NCBI GenBank assembly: GCA_963712425.1
Contig: CAVQHW010000004.1
Location: 216,670-280,669, forward strand
DNA from: an uncultured Actinomycetota bacterium
GTDB taxonomy: Bacteria > Actinomycetota > Actinomycetes > JAHEKZ01
Direction: 5' to 3'
DNA length: 64,000 bases
Below, piece after piece: positions 29,313-39,297 of the stretch; the stretch's first letter is position 1; the number at the start of each line of letters is the position of its first letter. The notes beneath the pieces are model-generated. The model ran no database searches. It saw only the letters and a program-made list of their open reading frames with translations, and had not been told where the DNA came from. A program made the position numbers and the translations under genes.

Positions 29313-30114
29313 TCAGCGTCCGAAGGGTCGTACGACGGTGCCCTTGATCGGCGTCGACCTACCCCACATCGACGCGATCCGTACTTGCGGACGCACCGCC
29401 TCGAGTACCCGGCCGTTGCCCAGGTAGATGCCCATGTGACTGATCGAGCCCGATGGGCCAAAGAAGATCAGGTCGCCGCGCTTGCGTTCGGTGAGCGGGC
29501 GCTTGGGCAGCCCGGAGTCGAAGATGCGCGACGCCGTGGGGTAGTCCTGACGCTGGTGCTTGAAGGTCGTGACGCCAGGTAGCACGCGTCCGCCGGCATA
29601 CATCGCCTGGAGCGTGAGCCCCGAGCAGTCATAGCCGATCGGACCAGCAGCTCCCCAGATGTACGTGGTGCCGAGCTGTTGCCGTGGCCCAGCGAATCAT
29701 GGCGTCTTTGCGTTTGGCGGGGGAACGGGGCGCAGAGACCTTCGGCTGCACCGTGAACCGGTCCATGCAGAACGAGCGCTGCATTCCCAGCTCTTGCCAC
29801 GTGGCTCGATTGACGCGTCCGGTCACATTCAGATCCTTGCGACGCTGGAATCCACGCACCGCCTGGTAGGTGTCTTCCTGATAGCGGTCGAGCTCATGTG
29901 TCGTTCCGAGCCGTCGCTGTACGAGCGCTACCTTCGCGCCGGCCCATTCGCGTCCGAGCACGATGCACCCCTTGGCAACCGGCACCTGCGTCGACAGGTA
30001 GGGGTTGTTGTCGCCGGATCCAGCGGATGTCGGGGTAGCGCTCACGAGGGTCGCGGCGAGCGCCACGGTGAGCACGGCGGCGGCCGAGGCGGTTCTAGTG
30101 GACGAGCGAGTCAT
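29313..30114 (-). pseudogene. Secreted NlpC/P60 peptidoglycan endopeptidase with an N-terminal PG-binding domain and a frameshift near 29650-29665
   Basis: ATG 30114 is followed by a signal peptide and a PG_binding_1-like segment (VQRRLG...YQAVRGFQRRKDLNVTG) ending ...RWATATARHHV...*. The catalytic part (QQLGTTYIWGAAGPIGYDCSGL...ISHMGIYLGNG) is in the +1 frame. Confidence 0.75.
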
Positions 30115-30144
30115 GCACACATCATCGGCCACCGGGGTGGGGAA

Positions 30145-31701
30145 GTGGAGCAGCGTGGCACCCTGGCGGCTGTGACAAGCACAACGACGAGCAGCCGAGC
30201 GTGGCCATCCTGGTTCGACCGTGATCGTGCCGCCAAGATCGTTGACCCCCACTTTGACCGGGTGTTTGAGCGGCAGGCAGCCCCCGGGATCGCCTACGGC
30301 GTGGTGCTCAACGGGCGCCTGGTCCACAGTCGAGGGCTGGGCGCGAGCATGGTTGGTGAGGGCGAGGATGCGGCCGTCCCAAACCCCCACACCGCTTTCC
30401 GCATCGCCTCGATGACGAAGAGCTTTTCGGCGGCAACGGTCTTGTCGTTGCGTGACGAGGGTGCGCTCCATCTCGAGACGCCAGCCGCCGACCTGGTTCC
30501 AGAGGTCGGGTCGAGCGGTCACCCCTGGGCCCGGCAAGTCACGGTGCGGCACCTGCTGACGATGGGCGCCGGGTACCTCACCGACGACCCGTGGGGCGAC
30601 CGGCAACAGGATCTGCCGATCGACACCTTCCGGAATTTGCTTGCCGGTGGCGTCCGACCCGCGCTGCCTCCAGGTGATCGGTTCGAGTACTCGAACCTGG
30701 GGTACGCGCTGCTCGGGCTGGTGATCTCGGCGGTGTCGGGGCAGAGCTACGTGGACGCTGTGACGAAGCGCGTTCTCGAGCCGGTCGGGCTGCACGAGAC
30801 GGGGTTCACTACCGAGGTTGCTGCTGCGTCCCTCGCCAAGGGCTACGTGCGGCGCCTCGACGGCTGGGTCGAGGAACCCATCGCAGCGCCTGGTGCCTTC
30901 TCGCCGATGGGCGGTCTGATCAGCACGGTGTCCGACCTTGCGCGATGGGTCGGGTTCCTTGAGTCTCAGGGCACTCGCTCAGAGGGGGTAGTGCCCTTGA
31001 GCGAGCTCAGCGTGCGCGAGATGCAACGCACGCAGCGTCTCGTGACAGCGAGCGTCGCGCGCGACGCCGCCGAGGCCCCTGACGTCATCGGATACGGCTG
31101 CGGGTTGTTCGAAGAGTTCCGGCCATGGGGTCGCAGTGTCAGCCACTCAGGCGGATACCCCGGGTTCGGATCGCACATGCGGTGGCATCCGGCGTCCGGC
31201 CTCGGCCTCGTCGCGCTGGCCAACGGCACCTACGCACCGATGTCGACGGTCTCGCTAGCGGCGATGGCTGACCTGGTGCGAGAGCTGGGTGCTCCCATCA
31301 CCCCAGACGGCATCGCACTGCCGGGGCTGGACGCCGCGGTCAAGGCGGTTCAGGCGTGGTTGGCAGCGGCGGACCCCGATGGTGCTGAGGCAGTGCGGTT
31401 GCGCAGTCTGTGGGCAGACAACGTCGAGCGAGACCTGCCGTGGGCCGAGCGACTGGCGGCGTTGGCCGCCCTTCGCGCCGAGTGCGGGCCCCTGTCACCG
31501 GTGGCGGGGTCTGAGAAGCGTCACTCACCTGGCTCGCTCACATGGGACATGACCGGTCAGGACGCGGCTGGGGCCGCAGAAGCCCGGGTTCGGGTCACCG
31601 TGATGGTGGCCCCTCACGACCCGGATCTCGTGCAATCGGTCACCCTGCGCAGGCTCAAGACCGACGAGCCTCCAGCCGCTCTGACAGCGGACGTCCACTG
31701 A
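30145..31701 (+). CDS. Beta-lactamase-family serine hydrolase (class C-like esterase or penicillin-binding-protein homolog)
   Basis: SxxK motif (SMTKSF), YSN-like motif (YSNLGY) and a C-terminal extra domain. A likely GTG start at 30145 is preceded by GGGGTGGGGAA. The ORF-track N-terminal 160 aa is antisense to nlpC and was rejected. Confidence 0.78.
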   Translation: MEQRGTLAAVTSTTTSSRAWPSWFDRDRAAKIVDPHFDRVFERQAAPGIAYGVVLNGRLVHSRGLGASMVGEGEDAAVPNPHTAFRIASMTKSFSAATVLSLRDEGALHLETPAADLVPEVGSSGHPWARQVTVRHLLTMGAGYLTDDPWGDRQQDLPIDTFRNLLAGGVRPALPPGDRFEYSNLGYALLGLVISAVSGQSYVDAVTKRVLEPVGLHETGFTTEVAAASLAKGYVRRLDGWVEEPIAAPGAFSPMGGLISTVSDLARWVGFLESQGTRSEGVVPLSELSVREMQRTQRLVTASVARDAAEAPDVIGYGCGLFEEFRPWGRSVSHSGGYPGFGSHMRWHPASGLGLVALANGTYAPMSTVSLAAMADLVRELGAPITPDGIALPGLDAAVKAVQAWLAAADPDGAEAVRLRSLWADNVERDLPWAERLAALAALRAECGPLSPVAGSEKRHSPGSLTWDMTGQDAAGAAEARVRVTVMVAPHDPDLVQSVTLRRLKTDEPPAALTADVH

Positions 31702-31907: not shown

Positions 31908-32111
31908 ATGGCAGTAGGCAGCGTTAAGTGGTTCAACGCTGAAAAGGGTTACGGATTCATTGAGCAAGACGGCGGCGGCGCCGACGTCTTTGTTCACTTC
32001 TCGGCCATCACGATGGACGGGTACCGCACCCTTGAAGAGAACCAGCGCGTCGAGTTCGAAATCACTCAGGGCCCGAAGGGTCCGCAGGCCGAGAACGTTC
32101 GGCTTGCCTGA
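31908..32111 (+). CDS. cspA: Cold-shock protein CspA family
   Basis: 67 aa with RNP1/RNP2 motifs ([18 protein letters not shown]). Confidence 0.92.
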
Positions 32112-32158: not shown

Positions 32159-32206
32159 CGAAGGACCCGGTAGCTCACCTCAGTGGTGGGTCTGCCGGGT
32201 CCTTCG
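32159..32206. terminator. Bidirectional intrinsic-terminator-like hairpin between convergent cspA and the S51/CysRS-C gene
   Basis: A 12-bp perfect stem (CGAAGGACCCGG ... CCGGGTCCTTCG) with a 24-nt loop that itself can pair (CACC/GGTG). No T-tract, as is usual in high-GC actinobacteria. Confidence 0.55.
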
Positions 32207-32209
32207 TCG

Positions 32210-33487
32210 TTAGTCAGAGTTTGCGGCGCCAGGGCTGGGTGCGAGTGACCAACTGACGCCCTCGGGGGTGTCTTGCACCTCGACGCCACCAGCGCCGAGC
32301 ACGTCACGAATGAGGTCACTGGTGGCGTAGTCCTTCTGATCACGTGCGGACGCGCGTGCCTCGAGCAGCGGCTCGACAAGTGGCGCGACGATCGTCGCTG
32401 GATCGGTGGTGCCAATCCGCGCCAGTTCACCGAGTCGGACGACCATGGCGCGCAGCTGCCTTCGCGCACGGTCGATCGCGTCGCTTTGCAGGGTGTCAGC
32501 CGACCACGCCTGAATGGCGTCGTCGATTGCCAGCACGGCGGCGACCGCGGCGTCCACGTCGCGTGCTTCAAGTGCGCTATCGAAGGCATCGCGATGCGCA
32601 GCGACGTCACGTTCGAGAGATGGGGCAGATGCCTCCGGTGATGCCTTCGGTTCTGCTGGTGCTGCTGACCGAGGCGTGGCCTCAGCCGGCGCGGGCCTGT
32701 TGGCGCTGAAGACCGCTTTGAAGTCGGCCACCGTCATGACCGTTCCGGAAGGGATCACCTCGGCGCTGCCTTGTCGACGCACTGTCACGCCGCCGGTGCC
32801 AGAGACCTCGACCCGTTCGGCACCCAGGTCGATCATCAGCGCGGTGTGCTCGTCGACCCCCAGAACGGCGGCGCCGTCGTCGAGTTGCTGCTCCATCGCC
32901 GCGAGTCGATCGAGGCCGAGGTAGCAGAACCGGGTGTCGTAGGTTCCCCCCTCGGCGTTGTCGAAGTGGGGGACAACCGCCAGCGTGAGGTCAAGAAACT
33001 CCGCCAGGAGGTCAAGCCCCTGAACCCATGCAGGCTCGGCGCCGACCTTGTAGATCTCGTAGACCGGAAGTGCCCATCTCCCTGCCGTGACGGCGGCGGC
33101 GCTCCCCAGCGTGACCGTGCCGCCGCGTCGCACCACATCCGAGATTGCTCCCGCCATAGGCGTTCCTTGCCATTGACCCAACGCATACGTGGGGCTACCT
33201 GGCCCAGCGAAGAGCCAGGACGCCTGACTCACCTCAGCTAGCGCCTGATCGTGACCCGTGTCGTCACGCGAGCGCCAACGGGCCGCGCGGACGGTGTGCC
33301 CGACGGAGTCGGCGAAGTAGCGAAGGGTGCGGTGGGTGAGGTCATCAGCGTTGACCTGGAAGCCGTAGGGAGTATCGAGCATCACGGCTGGGCCTGAGCC
33401 TGAGCTGGCGAGCACCGCACGGTGGGTCTTGACCATTGCAGGCGCGGTTTCGCCTGACCCCATCAATACGATTCGGCCGTCAGTCAC
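32210..33487 (-). CDS. Fusion protein: N-terminal peptidase-S51/cyanophycinase-like domain, Pro/Ala-rich linker, and a C-terminal cysteinyl-tRNA-synthetase-type anticodon-binding (DALR-2-like) helical domain
   Basis: The N-terminus (IVLMGSGETAP...GSAAAVTAGRW) resembles class-I glutamine-amidotransferase-like S51 hydrolases. The C-terminus (RDVDAAVAAVLAIDDAIQAW ... RASARDQKDYATSDLIRDVLGAGGVEVQDTPEGVSW) matches the CysRS C-terminal R-x-ARK-KDW-AADxxRDxLxxxGI-LEDxPxGTxW pattern. Confidence 0.6.
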   Translation of the reverse strand: MTDGRIVLMGSGETAPAMVKTHRAVLASSGSGPAVMLDTPYGFQVNADDLTHRTLRYFADSVGHTVRAARWRSRDDTGHDQALAEVSQASWLFAGPGSPTYALGQWQGTPMAGAISDVVRRGGTVTLGSAAAVTAGRWALPVYEIYKVGAEPAWVQGLDLLAEFLDLTLAVVPHFDNAEGGTYDTRFCYLGLDRLAAMEQQLDDGAAVLGVDEHTALMIDLGAERVEVSGTGGVTVRRQGSAEVIPSGTVMTVADFKAVFSANRPAPAEATPRSAAPAEPKASPEASAPSLERDVAAHRDAFDSALEARDVDAAVAAVLAIDDAIQAWSADTLQSDAIDRARRQLRAMVVRLGELARIGTTDPATIVAPLVEPLLEARASARDQKDYATSDLIRDVLGAGGVEVQDTPEGVSWSLAPSPGAANSD

Positions 33488-33505
33488 TGCGCGTCCTTGG
33501 CTTGC

Positions 33506-34363
33506 TCACTGTGCCGATCCTTGCACGCGATCGATCAAGGCGAACACCTGCTCTGCGACAACGTCTGGCTGCTGCAGGTGAATGTCGTGATGGGCTTCCG
33601 GGTACCAACGTGCAGTGGCGTCTGGCAGCTGCTCGAGCGCCTGGTCGACATCCTCGGACGTCGCCTTACCGGCCACGATCAGGCTCACCGGTACGTTGAC
33701 GCGGCCGTAGTTCGTTGCCGGATCGTCTTCCCACAGCGAGTGCACGATGCTCCGATGGTGCTCGAACGAGAGCCGATTGCGGACGCGGCCGTCAACGACC
33801 TCGAGATTGCCCATGATCGCGTCCACCGAATGTGCTGGCCATCCTCGAACAAAGCCCTGAATACGTGCTAGCGCCTGCTCGGGGGTGGCATCGCCGAAGC
33901 TCGGTGGCTTGAGTGCTGCCCAGCACTCGTCGAAATCGGCGAACCGTGGCTGCAGGTGGATCCAGCCACCGTCGACGCACATGACACCGCCCCAGAGCGC
34001 GCTCTGCGCGGCACTGTGAATGGCGACGTTGGCACCCCACGACTGGCCGACGACTAGCGGGCCGGACGCCTGCCACCCCAAAGCAGCGGCGAGCGCAGTC
34101 ACATCATGGGCTGCCTGCGCGGTCGTGTAGCCCGTCGAAGGGGCCTCGGAGCGGCCGTGTCCGCGCAGATCGACTGCCGCAACAGCGTGGCCTCGGGCGG
34201 CCAACGTCTCGGCGACCTGGCGCCACAGCAGCGCGTTGGAGGCGAGCCCGTGCATCAGGAGCACCGGGCGTCTGTTGCCTTCGTGAGATCTCACGGCAAG
34301 TGAGGTTCCGTCGGGGAGCGCCACCATGGTCGGGGGCCACCACGTGTCGTCCGGCCAGGTCAT
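33506..34363 (-). CDS. Alpha/beta-hydrolase fold protein
   Basis: 285 aa with an HGxxS(N) oxyanion region (LLMHGLASNALLW), a nucleophile elbow (VGQSWGANV) and a C-terminal His. Confidence 0.75.
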   Translation of the reverse strand: MTWPDDTWWPPTMVALPDGTSLAVRSHEGNRRPVLLMHGLASNALLWRQVAETLAARGHAVAAVDLRGHGRSEAPSTGYTTAQAAHDVTALAAALGWQASGPLVVGQSWGANVAIHSAAQSALWGGVMCVDGGWIHLQPRFADFDECWAALKPPSFGDATPEQALARIQGFVRGWPAHSVDAIMGNLEVVDGRVRNRLSFEHHRSIVHSLWEDDPATNYGRVNVPVSLIVAGKATSEDVDQALEQLPDATARWYPEAHHDIHLQQPDVVAEQVFALIDRVQGSAQ

Positions 34364-34535
34364 GGGGTGGCCTTGTGCCGTACGGCGTCGATGAGGGATG
34401 CCGTACGTAGCGAGAGCGTCGATGACGGGACGTAGGCGCTTTCATCGCCATCGATCGCCTTCGAAACGTGCTCCAGCATCAGTTGGTACGCGTCGCAGGG
34501 GGCGAACTTCTCGCTCCACCGCTCGCCACCGTCGG

Positions 34536-35325
34536 TCAGAGGTCCAAGCTGGACTCGGCATGCCAGTTGGTGAATGCGCTGCCGACCCATGTCACCGACA
34601 GATCGTCTGCCGCCACTCGCAGGGCCTGATGCTCAGGGCTGATGAACGACGCCTCGACGGACGCCGTGGCGATCTCGGTCTTCAGCGTGGCTGTCGTGCT
34701 GAGGTCGGCGCCTCGATCATTGAGGACAACATCGGCATCCGTCACCGAGCAGTCGTCACCACCCCAGTCGACAACTGGTGCGAGCACATAGGGGCCGAGG
34801 TCGAGCAATGCTCCACCACCCTTGGAGGCATCCAGCCGGTAGTTGGCATCTGGGACGCCATTGAAGGTGAATCGCGCGTCGATGTCGTGCACGCGCCCGT
34901 GAGCCCCGTTGCCCAGGAGGGCGTCGGCCCGCCGATGGCGTGGATGCCAACGCACCCAGGTGGCTTCGACTAGCAGCTTGCCGTGGGCCTCTGCCGCAGC
35001 GAACGCGCGCTGGCAGTCCTCCGCGCTCATCGCGAGTGGCTTCTCGCACAACACGTGCTTGCCGGACTCCAAACTCGCGAGAATCCAGGGCACGTGGAGG
35101 TCGTTGGACAGTGCGATGTACACCGCGTCGACCGTCGGATCGTTCACGAGGTCTCGATAGGTGTCGTGTACGCGTTCTGGTTCGAGAGCCTGCCGCCCGT
35201 TCGGGGTCACGTGCCGCGGCGGCGTGAAGCGTGACGCCGGACGCGGCGTGCGCGGCGGGGGCCAATGCCTTCGTCGCAATGAAACCAGCGCCGAGGAATC
35301 CCCAACGAACAGCGTGGTGTGTCAC
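34536..35325 (-). pseudogene. Gfo/Idh/MocA-family NAD(P)-dependent oxidoreductase with a frameshift near 35185-35200
   Basis: The N-terminal Rossmann segment MTHHAVRWGFLGAGFIATKALAPAAHAASGVTLHAAAARDPERAA is in one frame. The continuation LEPERVHDTYRDLVNDPTVDAVYIALSNDLHVPWILASLESGKHVLCEKPLA... is in another. Its start abuts the stop of the upstream 554-aa gene. Confidence 0.7.
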
Positions 35326-36986
35326 TGTTCCCCGTCGACACGAACGGGTTCGCCACGGGAGTGCGCAGAAGCACGCGCCGCGTCCATCACCGCGACCACT
35401 CGACGTGACTGTTCGACTGTGACGCTCATCGGCCAGTCGTACAGCAACTCGTCAACAAGCTCGCGGTGGAACCCGAACTGCGGAATCTGCGGAGGAACGA
35501 GTTGGGTCTCTGCTCCAGACGCGTCGATCAGCAGCACGTCAGGGGGCGCGTCCGTCACCAGCAGGCGGTCCTCGGCGAGCGTGCCGATCTCGGTGCGAGA
35601 AATAACCGCCTCGTGTCGCCACCGACTGGTGAGCGCACCCTCGGTTCCCAGCAAGTACCAGCGGGGTTTGAGTGCGGCAGCGAGGTCGGAGTGAACGAAG
35701 CTTGCCTCCGCTCCGTCGTCGAATCGGATGGTCATCGAGGTGTGGTCGGCATTTGTCACATCAAGCCACCGTCGCTTGTGCTCTATCGCGGTGACATGCC
35801 TGATCGGCCCGGGGTGCAGGGCCAACACCTGGTCAAGAATGTGGGAGCCCCAGTCGTACACGGCGCCGCCGGAGACGTCAGCGTCGGAGTGCCAGTAGTT
35901 GCAGGGGTGACCGTAGCCGCCGATGAATGTTTCGAGGTGGAAGAGATCCCCGACTTTGCCCGCGTCGAGGGCGCCGCGAATCGAGAGAAAATCGGGGTCA
36001 TACCGACGGTTCTGATAGACGACTGCATGGCGTCCGGTGTCGGTTGCGGCGGCGAGGACTCGATCGGCGTCGTCCACCGAGATCGCTAGGGGTTTCTCAA
36101 TGACGACGTCTTTGCCGGCGTGCAAAGCTCGCTCTGCCCAGTCGGCGTGACTGTCGGGTGGGGTCGACACGACGATGAGGTCGACGTCTGACTCGAGCAG
36201 CTCTGATGGCTCGGTCGTAGCCCGGACTCCCGGCGCGTGTTCCGTTGCGGCTTGGACGCGCGCCTGGTTTCTGTCGCAGACCATCGTCAACTCAAGGCCC
36301 GGTAGTGCATGTACGGCCTTGGCATGCTCGGCCCCGATGGCACCGAAGCCCAAAAGGCCGACCCGCCGGCTTGGCGTGGCCGCAGGTCCGTCGATGCCCA
36401 ATGCACGTCGCATCGCGAGATGGAGCAGGCGGGCGTAGGACGCCGTAGCAATCGCATCGCCGAGTTCGGGCATCGCGGTGAAGGTGCCGACTGACGTCTC
36501 GGGGTTCCACGTCAGAACGGGATGGTGGCTAAGCCCCAGTGGTGCTGACAACCACACTTCGACGCTGTCTCGAAGCTTGTCGATGGTGAGCACTGACGTG
36601 GTGAGTTCTACGGAGGGTTCCACGGGGCACACTCGACGAATCCACGGCTCTTGGCCCTGAGGCTGAAGCCGGGAAGGGTGAGGCCCGACCCATGACCGAG
36701 CAACAACTCCGCTCGCCTCGCGGAGGGTAGGGAGATCGGACGTCAGGGACCGCCCCATCAGGATTGTCGGATTGCCGCGACTGGCCCCAGCGGCAACTGC
36801 GTCCTGGCGAGCGTCGCTCAAGCCCAGGGGTGACCACACCAAGCAAACGCCTTCTGGCGTCTCGTCTTGGCGGGACAGCGTGGTACGCCACCCTGCCCGG
36901 GTAAGGAGCCGATCGAGGTCAGCCTGTACTGCTGATTCACGCGGGCTGAGATCGCCCAGAACCCACGCCAACTGCTGCCTACCCAC
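35322..36986 (-). CDS. Two-domain protein: an uncharacterised N-terminal domain of about 210 aa fused to a Gfo/Idh/MocA oxidoreductase
   Basis: 554 aa. Residues from about 215 show a Rossmann motif (RVGLLGFGAIGAEHAKA), EKPLA and the C-terminal Gfo/Idh/MocA alpha/beta domain. The N-terminal domain has no motif I recognise. Confidence 0.65.
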   Translation of the reverse strand: MGRQQLAWVLGDLSPRESAVQADLDRLLTRAGWRTTLSRQDETPEGVCLVWSPLGLSDARQDAVAAGASRGNPTILMGRSLTSDLPTLREASGVVARSWVGPHPSRLQPQGQEPWIRRVCPVEPSVELTTSVLTIDKLRDSVEVWLSAPLGLSHHPVLTWNPETSVGTFTAMPELGDAIATASYARLLHLAMRRALGIDGPAATPSRRVGLLGFGAIGAEHAKAVHALPGLELTMVCDRNQARVQAATEHAPGVRATTEPSELLESDVDLIVVSTPPDSHADWAERALHAGKDVVIEKPLAISVDDADRVLAAATDTGRHAVVYQNRRYDPDFLSIRGALDAGKVGDLFHLETFIGGYGHPCNYWHSDADVSGGAVYDWGSHILDQVLALHPGPIRHVTAIEHKRRWLDVTNADHTSMTIRFDDGAEASFVHSDLAAALKPRWYLLGTEGALTSRWRHEAVISRTEIGTLAEDRLLVTDAPPDVLLIDASGAETQLVPPQIPQFGFHRELVDELLYDWPMSVTVEQSRRVVAVMDAARASAHSRGEPVRVDGEQ

Positions 36987-37042: not shown

Positions 37043-37104
37043 CCTAGGCCCCCCGAGCCGATCTCGCAGCCGCCGCGGCGGCTACTCACACAGTGCGGGG
37101 CCTA
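37043..37104. terminator. Nested GC-rich palindrome downstream of purU
   Basis: CTAGGCCCC (37043-37051) pairs with GGGGCCTAG (37096-37104, overlapping the purU stop). A perfect 14-bp palindrome GCCGCCGCGGCGGC sits inside it at 37068-37081. Confidence 0.45.
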
Positions 37105-37965
37105 GCGGAAGACGACCGTGCGGTGGCCGTTGAGCAGGATGCGGCTCTCGGCATGCCAGAGGACCGCACGGGCCAGGGCCTGGCACTCTACGTCGCGACC
37201 CACTGTCACGAGCTTCTCCGGCGACAAGGTGTGATCGACCCGCGCAACCTCTTGCTCGATGATGGGGCCCTCGTCGAGGTCGGTTGTCACGTAGTGCGCG
37301 GTCGCACCGATGAGTTTCACGCCGCGCTCGTGTGCCTGGTGGTACGGCTTACCGCCTTTGAAGCTGGGTAGGAAAGAGTGATGGATGTTGATCGCCTTGC
37401 CATTCAGCGCCCGACACAGGTCTTCGGATAGCACCTGCATATAGCGCGCCAGCACCACGAGGTCGACCGACTCTTTGTCGACGAGGTCGAGCAGCTGCTG
37501 CTCAGCTTCTGGCTTGGTCTCGGCGGTGACGGGTATGTAGTGGAACGGGAAACCGTAGTCGTCGACCAGGCTCTCGTAGTCACGGTGATTGGAGACCACG
37601 CCGGCAACATCGATCGGCAAGGCGCCAATGCGGTGCCGGAAGAGCAGGTCGTTGAGGCAGTGACCGAACCTTGAGACCATCAGCAGAACCCGAGGCCGTT
37701 CTTCGGCGCCACGAAGAATGAAGTCCATGTCGAACGTCGTTGACATCCGCTCGAAGTCCCGTTGCAGGGTGTCGAGTTCGTCGCCGTCCGAGCAGAAGAA
37801 TCGGACCCGCATGAAGAAGATGCCGGTGTCCTGGTCGCCGTACTGTTGGCTCGAGATGACGGTGCAGTTGTGCTGCACGAGGAAGCTCGAAACGGCGTAG
37901 ACGACACCCGGCCTGTCAGGGCATGAGAGCGTCAGGATGAACTGGGGGTGTCCGGAGGGCGCCAT
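37102..37965 (-). CDS. purU: Formyltetrahydrofolate deformylase PurU
   Basis: N-terminal ACT domain (FILTLSCPDRPGVVYAVS) and a formyl-transferase core (HHSFLPSFKGGKPYHQA...DEGPII). ATG 37965. The ORF-track N-terminal extension was rejected. Confidence 0.88.
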   Translation of the reverse strand: MAPSGHPQFILTLSCPDRPGVVYAVSSFLVQHNCTVISSQQYGDQDTGIFFMRVRFFCSDGDELDTLQRDFERMSTTFDMDFILRGAEERPRVLLMVSRFGHCLNDLLFRHRIGALPIDVAGVVSNHRDYESLVDDYGFPFHYIPVTAETKPEAEQQLLDLVDKESVDLVVLARYMQVLSEDLCRALNGKAINIHHSFLPSFKGGKPYHQAHERGVKLIGATAHYVTTDLDEGPIIEQEVARVDHTLSPEKLVTVGRDVECQALARAVLWHAESRILLNGHRTVVFR

Positions 37966-38057
37966 GGTGATCCTGGGGGAGAGGAATGCGGAACAAGAGT
38001 AGGGTATCAACTGATAGCCTAGGTCGACGAGCCGTTCCACGACGTGAGGGGGCCGTG

Positions 38058-38690
38058 ATGGCGAGTGTCGTTGAGGACGCTGAGCGGCGAGTACTAGACC
38101 TGCGGGGCACCCCACGTCCGCAATGGGGCACCAAAGACCGCATTCTGTTGGCCGCGTCCCAGTTGTTCGCGGTACACGGATTTCGCGGCGCGTCGACCCG
38201 CGCCATTGCCGATCAAGTGGGCGTGCGCCAGCCATCGTTGTTCAAACACTTTGGGTCCAAGCGCGACATGCTCGGTGAGCTAGCCATCTTCGACATGCAT
38301 GTTCCGGCGCAGCATGCACAGCGCGCCGCCGCAGGCGAGGGGCCAGCGACAGACCGACTCGCCGCCTACTTGGCATGGGACTTTGAGTGGTACCGCACCA
38401 TGCCGTTCGACCTACGAGGCATGACCGATGACCTGGTGCGCAGTGAGGGACTGACCGAGGCGCAACGGGCACTCGGGCGCTGGACGCGGTCTATCAAGTC
38501 GATCCTCAAGCAAGGGGTCGAGTCAGGCGAGTTCGCCCCAGGGTCTGTGCGCTTTGTGCCGCCTGTCATCGAGACGTTGAGTTGGCACATGGTGCAGTCG
38601 TCGTCAGCCACGGGCAAGACGGTCGACGATGGCGTCCGCTTCGTGCTCGCTGCAGTGCTCGCTCCGACAGTGGACGACTCCACCACCTAA
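38058..38690 (+). CDS. TetR-family transcriptional regulator
   Basis: TetR HTH (ILLAASQLFAVHGFRGASTRAIADQVGVRQPSLFKHFGSK). Divergent from purU. Start is probably ATG 38058; the ORF track starts at 37986. Confidence 0.78.
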   Translation: MASVVEDAERRVLDLRGTPRPQWGTKDRILLAASQLFAVHGFRGASTRAIADQVGVRQPSLFKHFGSKRDMLGELAIFDMHVPAQHAQRAAAGEGPATDRLAAYLAWDFEWYRTMPFDLRGMTDDLVRSEGLTEAQRALGRWTRSIKSILKQGVESGEFAPGSVRFVPPVIETLSWHMVQSSSATGKTVDDGVRFVLAAVLAPTVDDSTT

Positions 38691-39198: not shown

Positions 39199-39212
39199 CA
39201 GATTTCACACGG

Positions 39213-39297
39213 TGTCCGAGGGGGGACTTGAACCCCCAAGCCCTTTCGGGCACTAGCACCTCAAGCTAGCGCGTCTACCAGATTCCGCCACTCGGAC
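39213..39297 (-). tRNA. tRNA-Leu (anticodon GAG), class II with a long variable arm; CCA not encoded
   Basis: Reverse complement is GTCCGAGTGGCGGAATCTGGTAGACGCGCTAGCTTGAGGTGCTAGTGCCCGAAAGGGCTTGGGGGTTCAAGTCCCCCCTCGGACA. It has a 7-bp acceptor stem, anticodon loop CTTGAGGTG (anticodon GAG) and T-loop GGTTCAAGTCC. Confidence 0.85.

Follow-up and report, generated by a model that had tools for sequence, protein, structure and literature searches.

Does a string of four genes that ends in a serine hydrolase joined to part of a tRNA synthetase encode a single pathway, and what might the terminal fusion do? The question is raised by a locus of an uncultured Actinomycetota bacterium, which we analyzed within a stretch of 64,000 nucleotides (nt) of actinobacterial DNA with a G+C content of ~65% (contig CAVQHW010000004.1, positions 216,670 to 280,669; hereafter the window). 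Four co-oriented minus-strand genes lie there between purU (stop at 37102) and the convergent cspA (stop at 32111). An earlier note had read them as one operon, whose oxidoreductases, hydrolases and tRNA-recognition module might act together in an aminoacyl-tRNA-dependent tailoring or detoxification pathway. The four genes, and the parts of the last one (lengths in amino acids, aa), are as follows; CysRS stands for cysteinyl-tRNA synthetase.

35322..36986, minus strand: gene 1, 554 aa, a ThuA-like domain fused to a Gfo/Idh/MocA oxidoreductase
34360..35325, minus strand: gene 2, a second Gfo/Idh/MocA oxidoreductase, 966 nt, disrupted by +1 and +2 insertions
33506..34363, minus strand: gene 3, an α/β-fold serine hydrolase of 285 aa, the conserved partner of the fusion
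32210..33487, minus strand: gene 4, 425 aa, the fusion of an S51 domain, a linker and a CysRS-derived C-terminal part
32714..33487, minus strand: gene 4, aa 1-258, the S51 (PepE/cyanophycinase-like) serine hydrolase domain
32618..32713, minus strand: gene 4, aa 259-290, an Ala/Pro-rich linker of variable length
32210..32617, minus strand: gene 4, aa 291-425 and stop codon, a CysRS-derived helical bundle and a C-terminal anticodon-binding α/β unit

The locus is, very probably, one co-oriented and translationally coupled string of two separable two-gene modules, A (genes 1 and 2) and B (genes 3 and 4). The conserved core is the pair formed by the hydrolase and the fusion; the sugar-oxidoreductase pair is facultative, and it is broken here. 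The four-gene "operon" itself is ordinary. The fusion represents a large uncharacterised family with an unusual architecture, which is directly testable and is present in cultivable genera.

The S51/CysRS-C fusion

The AlphaFold2 model of gene 4 (predicted local distance difference test, pLDDT, 88.5; predicted template modelling score, pTM, 0.66) begins with an S51 domain (aa 1-258) and a disordered linker (aa 259-290), which are followed by a bundle of four helices (aa 291-383) and then by a helix with a β-hairpin (aa 387-415). When the N-terminal domain was compared with the PDB by Foldseek, the best match was 6nqc (expectation value, E, 1.2e-13; template modelling score 0.82), and further matches to pseudo-CphB, PepE and cyanophycinase (7uqv, 6a4r, 3en0, 1fy2) were obtained with a probability of 1.00 and E values from 1e-13 to 1e-9. 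A profile search against the PDB returned 6nqc at 4e-7, and the domain has the S51 fold of PepE and cyanophycinase. The S51 family uses a Ser-His-Glu/Asp triad, i.e., Ser120, His157 and Glu192 in PepE (PMC9239234). The candidate triad of gene 4, Ser129, His174 and Glu213, aligns with the Ser, His and Glu motifs of 6nqc. All the residue-conservation counts given for the fusion refer to 109 representatives of clusters at 50% identity; among them Ser129 and His174 are retained in 109/109, and Glu213 in 106/109. No match of gene 4 to Pfam Peptidase_S51 was obtained even at E 10, and the NCBIfam cyanophycinase model TIGR02069 is matched weakly (23 bits, against a cut-off of 126.6). By sequence, gene 4 also resembles the PDB entry 6nqc, titled "cyanophycinase-like exopeptidase", only weakly. 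The subfamily is marked by the invariant motifs GSGETAP, FAGPGSP, PVYEIYK and DTR.

The C-terminal part matches CysS_C (PF23493) over residues 371-413 with 25.5 bits, against a Pfam gathering threshold of 23, and the NCBIfam cysS models cover residues 295-414 only (21-28 bits, against cut-offs of 340-780). When a profile was built from 90 members of the family, it matched the CysRS structures 6ujd and 1li5 at 4.7e-8 and 5.8e-8, respectively, with query residues 299-414 aligned to residues 339-459 of E. coli CysRS. The Foldseek match of this part to 1u0b_B, a complex of CysRS with tRNA, extends over 130 columns with 25% identity. The class I Rossmann catalytic domain of CysRS is absent, aa 1-258 being of the S51 fold, so that gene 4 cannot charge tRNA. 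In E. coli CysRS, Arg427, Trp432, Asp436 and Arg439 are the anticodon-binding positions that were selected for mutagenesis (PMC13449415), and G34 of the anticodon contacts Arg427 and Asp436, which hold it, Trp432, on which it stacks, and, through water, Arg423 (PMC12684709). The residues R378, R382, Y387, D391 and R394 of gene 4 align to E. coli R423, R427, W432, D436 and R439. These two arginines, an aromatic residue at 387, D391 and R394 are kept in 102-105 of the 109 representatives at or below 50% identity, with F, W or Y at the position of Trp432. D406 and W413 are conserved as well, and together with the five contact positions they are kept in 100-105/109. This conservation indicates that selection acts on the active site as well as on the anticodon-reading surface. 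A tRNA connection for the tail is plausible, since the tail keeps the anticodon-reading residues, and in this respect the tRNA-recognition module proposed in the earlier note stands.

The family to which gene 4 belongs is large. It comprises more than 7,900 clusters at 90% identity; at 50% identity, with E up to 1e-3, there are 1,143, most of which have 360-460 aa. Nearly all members of this S51 subfamily have that length, which is the length of the fusion, and at least 89 of 108 carry the motif. At least 592 GTDB species representatives carry the fusion, which is found across Actinomycetota, including the cultivable Micromonospora, Actinoplanes, Phytohabitans, Kineosporia and Salinilacustrithrix. 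Its members are labelled "hypothetical" or "cyanophycinase-like exopeptidase" in the databases.

What could such a protein do? We tentatively read the fusion as an anticodon-addressed hydrolase that acts on acylated tRNA-Cys, a possibility that we favor while stopping short of calling it probable. The C-terminal module would dock on the GCA anticodon of tRNA-Cys by means of its CysRS-like Arg/Arg/aromatic/Asp/Arg set, and the tethered hydrolase would cleave an acyl group from the 3′ end of the tRNA, most simply on A76. The α/β-hydrolase would then take the released product, or a related ester, as its substrate, and the oxidoreductase pair would be a facultative neighbor instead of an obligate step. 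The fusion would thus be an aminoacyl-tRNA (or acyl-aminoacyl-tRNA) hydrolase addressed by the anticodon, serving quality control or salvage. We infer from sequence both the binding of tRNA-Cys and the hydrolysis of the attached group. The linker, with pLDDT values below 50 at residues 269-285, is 27-60 aa long in relatives, and a linker of this length could in principle span the distance from the anticodon to the acceptor end.

For the action of an S51 enzyme beside a nucleotide there is a precedent: MccG from Nocardia vaccinii cuts processed microcin C at its aspartyl-nucleotide bond (PMC9239234). The same precedent invites another explanation, namely that the fusion confers immunity in the manner of MccG, by destroying aminoacyl-nucleotide antibiotics that target CysRS. 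It is in keeping with this idea that the S51 MccG enzymes, which cleave processed microcin C, were first found in an actinobacterium, and that standalone homologues give basal resistance (PMC9239234). We consider it highly improbable: the part of CysRS that binds the adenylate, its catalytic domain, is the part that is absent, an anticodon-binding domain would have no role in such an enzyme, the third triad residue is Asp in the MccG clade and Glu in the fusion family, and there are no mcc-like genes nearby.

Several observations weigh against an action of the fusion on acylated tRNA-Cys. The known S51 enzymes cut amide bonds next to aspartate, not tRNA esters, and the nucleophile elbow of the family reads L-G-S-A-A instead of the usual G-x-S-x-G. 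The placement of the domains relative to each other is uncertain in the model (pTM 0.66, disordered linker), so that the reach to the acceptor end is assumed. The S51 domain carries a net charge of about -9 and the two C-terminal parts of about -4 each, which is not what a generic RNA binder typically shows. In none of 87 loci was a tRNA-Cys gene or cysS found near the fusion, nor was there a tRNA-Cys gene in the window, and a literature search on the fusion, cyanophycinase-like proteins, PDB 6nqc and S51 with tRNA found no paper on this family.

The charge and the neighborhood bear directly on another explanation, in which the CysRS-derived tail no longer binds tRNA and is a structural, oligomerisation or docking domain on an ordinary cyanophycinase/PepE-like peptidase, the gene order being a conserved core-genome neighborhood. 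All the domains are acidic, no tRNA-Cys gene is nearby, the Joint Genome Institute name is "cyanophycinase-like exopeptidase", and the flanks are housekeeping and lineage-variable genes (icd, mdh, ctaB, lpd-like, hbhA-like). A purely structural role is, however, rather unlikely, since the retention of the five anticodon-contact positions and of D406 and W413 at this level of divergence would be unexpected for pure structure. In addition, the failure of the Pfam S51 model and the low score of the cyanophycinase model argue that gene 4 is not an orthologue of the known peptidases.

Even if the tail does bind tRNA, it could serve as a sensor, so that uncharged tRNA-Cys toggles the peptidase and amino acids are freed when cysteine is scarce. 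The HisRS-like domain of GCN2, which senses uncharged tRNA, offers an analogy. The conserved anticodon-reading residues and the flexible linker of variable length between the domains would suit a sensor as well, and peptide-bond chemistry is the norm for S51 enzymes (PMC9239234). We find no evidence of a regulatory interface between the domains, and no candidate substrate pool among the neighbors, and regard a sensor as distinctly unlikely; sequence data alone would not tell it from the anticodon-addressed hydrolase.

In its broadest form, the hydrolase reading would make the S51/CysRS-C fusion and the α/β-hydrolase a so far unrecognised class of tRNA enzyme of the Actinomycetota, one that is addressed by the anticodon and would strip wrong or damaged acyl groups from tRNA-Cys. 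Candidates for such groups are a mischarged amino acid, selenocysteine, a persulfide or an N-blocked cysteine. We hold this broader claim to be doubtful. To our knowledge, CysRS has no editing domain. The policing of tRNA-Cys is only partly understood, and YbaK handles Cys on tRNA-Pro. If true, the claim would provide a new translational quality-control route for a synthetase without an editing domain of its own, a hydrolase with its own reader of the tRNA-Cys anticodon, and the first tRNA-directed enzyme on the S51 fold. If the tRNA hydrolase reading fails, the fusion would still be a clean case of an anticodon-binding module of an aminoacyl-tRNA synthetase that has been reused outside the synthetases.

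Gene order in related loci

The order of the four genes was compared across 83 related loci, which belong to Actinomycetes, Acidimicrobiia and, in a few cases, metagenome-assembled genomes labelled Chloroflexota. Of the 76 loci with enough sequence, 49 have the α/β-hydrolase gene immediately upstream of the fusion gene and in the same orientation, and a Gfo/Idh/MocA gene was found within 5 kb in 16 of 71 fusion loci, being absent from 55. The full four-gene order is present in the window's own clade (L001, L002, L004-L007, L034, L084 and L085), and also in a different flanking context (L086) and in Acidimicrobiia (L022, L026, L039 and L058). Relatives with 46-89% identity share this order, and in many cases all the junctions are 4-nt overlaps. 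The arrangement differs in L017 and L018, where the Gfo pair comes after the fusion. A pair made of a ThuA-Gfo gene and a Gfo gene occurs without an adjoining hydrolase or fusion in L087, L089 and L091, and the Gfo pair was alone in 3 of the 6 contexts that were looked up by a Gfo1 homologue. The locus consists of two separable modules, whose association is recurrent but non-obligate. On the conservation of the gene neighborhood, for which the earlier note had proposed a check, the loci are mixed: the four-gene order recurs in several lineages, but most fusion loci have no Gfo gene within 5 kb. The genes purU, cspA, a β-lactamase-family gene, TetR and an M20 peptidase gene accompany the cluster only in the window's own clade.

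A gene for a Pyr_redox_2 lpd-like flavoprotein disulfide reductase (~455 aa) directly precedes the hydrolase and fusion pair in L003 (L003:5763-7130), and an lpd-like flavoprotein gene directly precedes the Gfo pair in L087 (L087:4558-5934). The presence of an lpd-like gene before either half suggests an ancestral longer array, lpd-Gfo1-Gfo2-hydrolase-fusion, either half of which has since been lost.

These data also bear on the proposal that the four genes form one pathway, in which the aminoacyl group of Cys-tRNA-Cys would pass by way of an acyl-Ser129 intermediate to a sugar or cyclitol that the ThuA-like/Gfo enzymes supply, the purpose being tailoring or detoxification. Such a pathway would fit the four-gene order, joined by 4-nt overlaps, in L084, L085 and, with different flanks, L086, the same order in the four Acidimicrobiia loci, and the position of the Gfo pair downstream of the fusion in L017 and L018. 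The S51 enzymes act through a covalent acyl-enzyme, and PDB 7uqw is a cyanophycinase covalently bound to its substrate. We nevertheless judge a single pathway to be quite improbable, and as an obligate unit it does not hold: the Gfo genes accompany the fusion far less often than the α/β-hydrolase does (16/71 against 49/76), the pair occurs without the fusion elsewhere, and gene 2 is disrupted in this genome. Tailoring, in particular, would need a transferase; no S51 transferase is known, and the characterised S51 enzymes that we found are all hydrolases. The aminoacyl-tRNA tailoring pathway of the earlier note is thus partly supported at most, in that a tRNA link is plausible and the gene order recurs.

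In ~14 loci, mostly of Acidimicrobiia, a tRNA-Glu/Asp/Phe cluster starts 30-120 nt after the stop of the fusion gene, which is suggestive. The genes for tRNA-Glu(TTC), tRNA-Asp(GTC) and tRNA-Phe(GAA) are on the same strand as the fusion gene (e.g., L022:11341-11616). Loci with the cluster are L022, L026, L039, L058, L062, L066, L068, L072, L075, L077 and L082, all of Acidimicrobiia, plus L030 and L047, and some of them show only tRNA-Glu before the contig ends. The arrangement is synteny at the level of the lineage, and the fusion gene could be co-transcribed with the tRNA genes.

Other neighbors were seen in a single locus. In L003, a 3.5-Mb genome, genes for a D-Tyr-tRNA deacylase (L003:1-27) and an AlaX-like tRNA_SAD protein (L003:10888-11628) lie within 8 kb of the hydrolase and fusion pair, which may be a coincidence. 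A link to mycothiol, which an mshA-like glycosyltransferase gene 4 kb downstream in L003 had brought up, was rejected; it did not recur in other loci, and the gene is there because of a conserved actinobacterial gene order that includes hbhA-like and XRE-type regulator genes.

The gene string and its surroundings in the window

The coordinates and identities that the earlier note gave for genes 1, 3 and 4 (36986-35322, 34363-33506 and 33487-32210) were confirmed, as was the 4-nt overlap of genes 1 and 2 (GTGA). Gene 2 had been correctly described as a frameshifted Gfo/Idh/MocA gene, but its end had been placed at 34536, whereas its true span is 35325-34360. The spacer of 170 nt that had been reported after it does not exist, that stretch being gene 2's own 3′ end, so that genes 2 and 3 overlap by 4 nt too (ATGA). 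Genes 3 and 4 are separated by 18 nt, not 19, and this spacer carries an AAGGA ribosome-binding site. With two 4-nt overlaps and an 18-nt spacer on one strand, there is no room for internal promoters or terminators.

Gene 1 starts with GTG, 5 nt downstream of GGGAGG. It encodes a ThuA-like domain (aa 1-205, 36986-36372) and a Gfo/Idh/MocA domain (aa 208-548). The N-terminal domain has the ThuA/class I glutamine-amidotransferase-like fold; no Pfam family matches it at E up to 10, so that it is covered by no curated sequence model. It has no invariant cysteine, and is therefore not an active glutamine amidotransferase. Gene 1 is a ThuA-like/ThuB-like fusion, and together with gene 2 it makes up a pair of sugar or cyclitol oxidoreductases. 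YvaA/YhhX-type oxidoreductases, DgpA and inositol dehydrogenases are the closest relatives with a solved structure. Gene 3 matches the Pfam families Abhydrolase_6, Abhydrolase_1 and Hydrolase_4, and its motifs G106-Q-S108-W-G110, H38-G39 and H259/D260/H262 are kept in 27/27 orthologues, the Ser nucleophile being intact.

The frames of the string are not all intact. The orthologues of gene 2 are intact at 320-337 aa, and their tblastn alignment to the window is broken into three segments, which fall in turn in frames -2, -3 and -2. A DNA alignment with the intact copies of L084 and L001 located two insertions, of +1 near 35194 and of +2 at 34537-34536, and the Pfam matches fall on the middle frame. 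The middle segment is 87% identical, as protein, to the nearest orthologue and nine neighboring genes are intact, which suggests that the frameshifts mark either a very recent pseudogene or an assembly error. Exact copies of the broken products were not in the protein collection, and two independent contigs with a 100%-identical fusion gene end before they reach gene 2. Two scans of metagenome contigs for the gene 2 site, one with a pattern spanning the +2 site and one with a pattern adjoining it, found nothing.

Two scans of the window for frameshifts, one of third-position G+C (GC3) and one of the periodicity of GC3 minus GC2, missed even the two known sites of gene 2; third-position G+C is only ~0.73-0.76. 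The periodicity scan flagged a same-strand frame switch at ~22176 on the plus strand, with no stop codon nearby in the upstream frame. This may be another frameshift, and the scan is too insensitive to be trusted. The closest long relative, L001, whose fusion is 87% identical, carries frameshifts of its own, which makes indel errors plausible in this type of assembly: its gene 1 falls into parts of 83 and 423 aa (L001:4503-6168), the C-terminus of the fusion runs into another frame (L001:8001-9341), and an amidohydrolase further along is in three pieces.

Two further elements lie at the ends of the string.

32159..32206, no strand: hairpin with 15-nt arms, between gene 4 and cspA, whose stops converge
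37044..37105, no strand: nested palindrome in the 115-nt gap from the purU stop to the start of gene 1

The downstream hairpin reported in the earlier note is real and strong. Its 15-nt arms are 93% complementary, and the 104-nt spacer between gene 4 and cspA folds at -47 and -62 kcal/mol on the two strands (z-scores of -5.8 and -7.7). It is likely to be a bidirectional terminator, and no U-tract was found at it in the terminator scan. The upstream nested palindrome exists as well, with outer arms at 37044-37052 and 37097-37105 and an inner palindrome at 37068-37083, but its fold is unexceptional for its G+C content (z-score -1.3), and it overlaps the stop codon of purU. A scan for σ70-type promoters gave 0 promoters, with nothing above shuffled sequence, the σ70 consensus being ill-suited to Actinomycetota. 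The terminator scan gave 3 terminator-like sites against 3.1 expected from shuffled sequence, and between 28 and 42 kb Rfam matched tRNA-Leu alone.

The tRNA-Leu(GAG) gene (39211-39297, minus strand) lies between a GNAT-like open reading frame (ORF) and an M20 peptidase gene, and has the same position in the relatives L001, L002, L004-L006, L034, L084 and L085. The purU ORF (37102-38235, minus strand) has 377 aa in the mechanical ORF list. Family models match it only from residue 97 and its relatives have 287-292 aa, so the real start is probably the ATG at 37965, which would leave ~20 nt to the divergent TetR-family ORF at 37986. Likewise, the serine β-lactamase/AmpH-like ORF (29659-31701, plus strand) is listed with 680 aa; its domain begins near residue 200, relatives have ~500 aa, and the true start is probably well downstream of 29659.

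Relation to known systems

The S51 peptidases compared here, i.e., peptidase E, the cyanophycinases CphB and CphE, MccG and the uncharacterised 6nqc of an acI-B1 actinobacterium, have the same fold as the N-terminal domain of gene 4, with a Ser-His-acid triad at matching positions, and MccG shows that this fold accepts an aminoacyl-nucleotide substrate (PMC9239234). The fusion differs from these enzymes in its CysRS-derived tail of ~135 aa, its own invariant motifs and its unusual nucleophile elbow. With CysRS it shares a helical bundle and a terminal α/β unit, homologous to E. coli residues 339-459, with the same equivalents of the anticodon contacts. In contrast to CysRS, it has no Rossmann catalytic domain, and its C-terminal unit is net acidic.

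Module A resembles ThuA and ThuB, the trehalose-utilisation pair that makes 3-keto-disaccharides in rhizobia and Agrobacterium. Here, however, the two are fused in one chain that is followed by a second Gfo/Idh/MocA gene, Pfam ThuA is not matched, and no transporter genes are nearby. The closest functional parallel to the anticodon-addressed hydrolase would be the trans-editing deacylases, i.e., YbaK, which acts on Cys-tRNA-Pro, ProXp-ala, AlaX and D-Tyr-tRNA deacylase, which are free-standing hydrolases of acylated tRNA. These use the YbaK/INS, AlaX or DTD folds, generally without an anticodon-binding domain. By analogy, the job proposed for the fusion is the same, but it would be done on the S51 fold, and its specificity would come from an anticodon reader.

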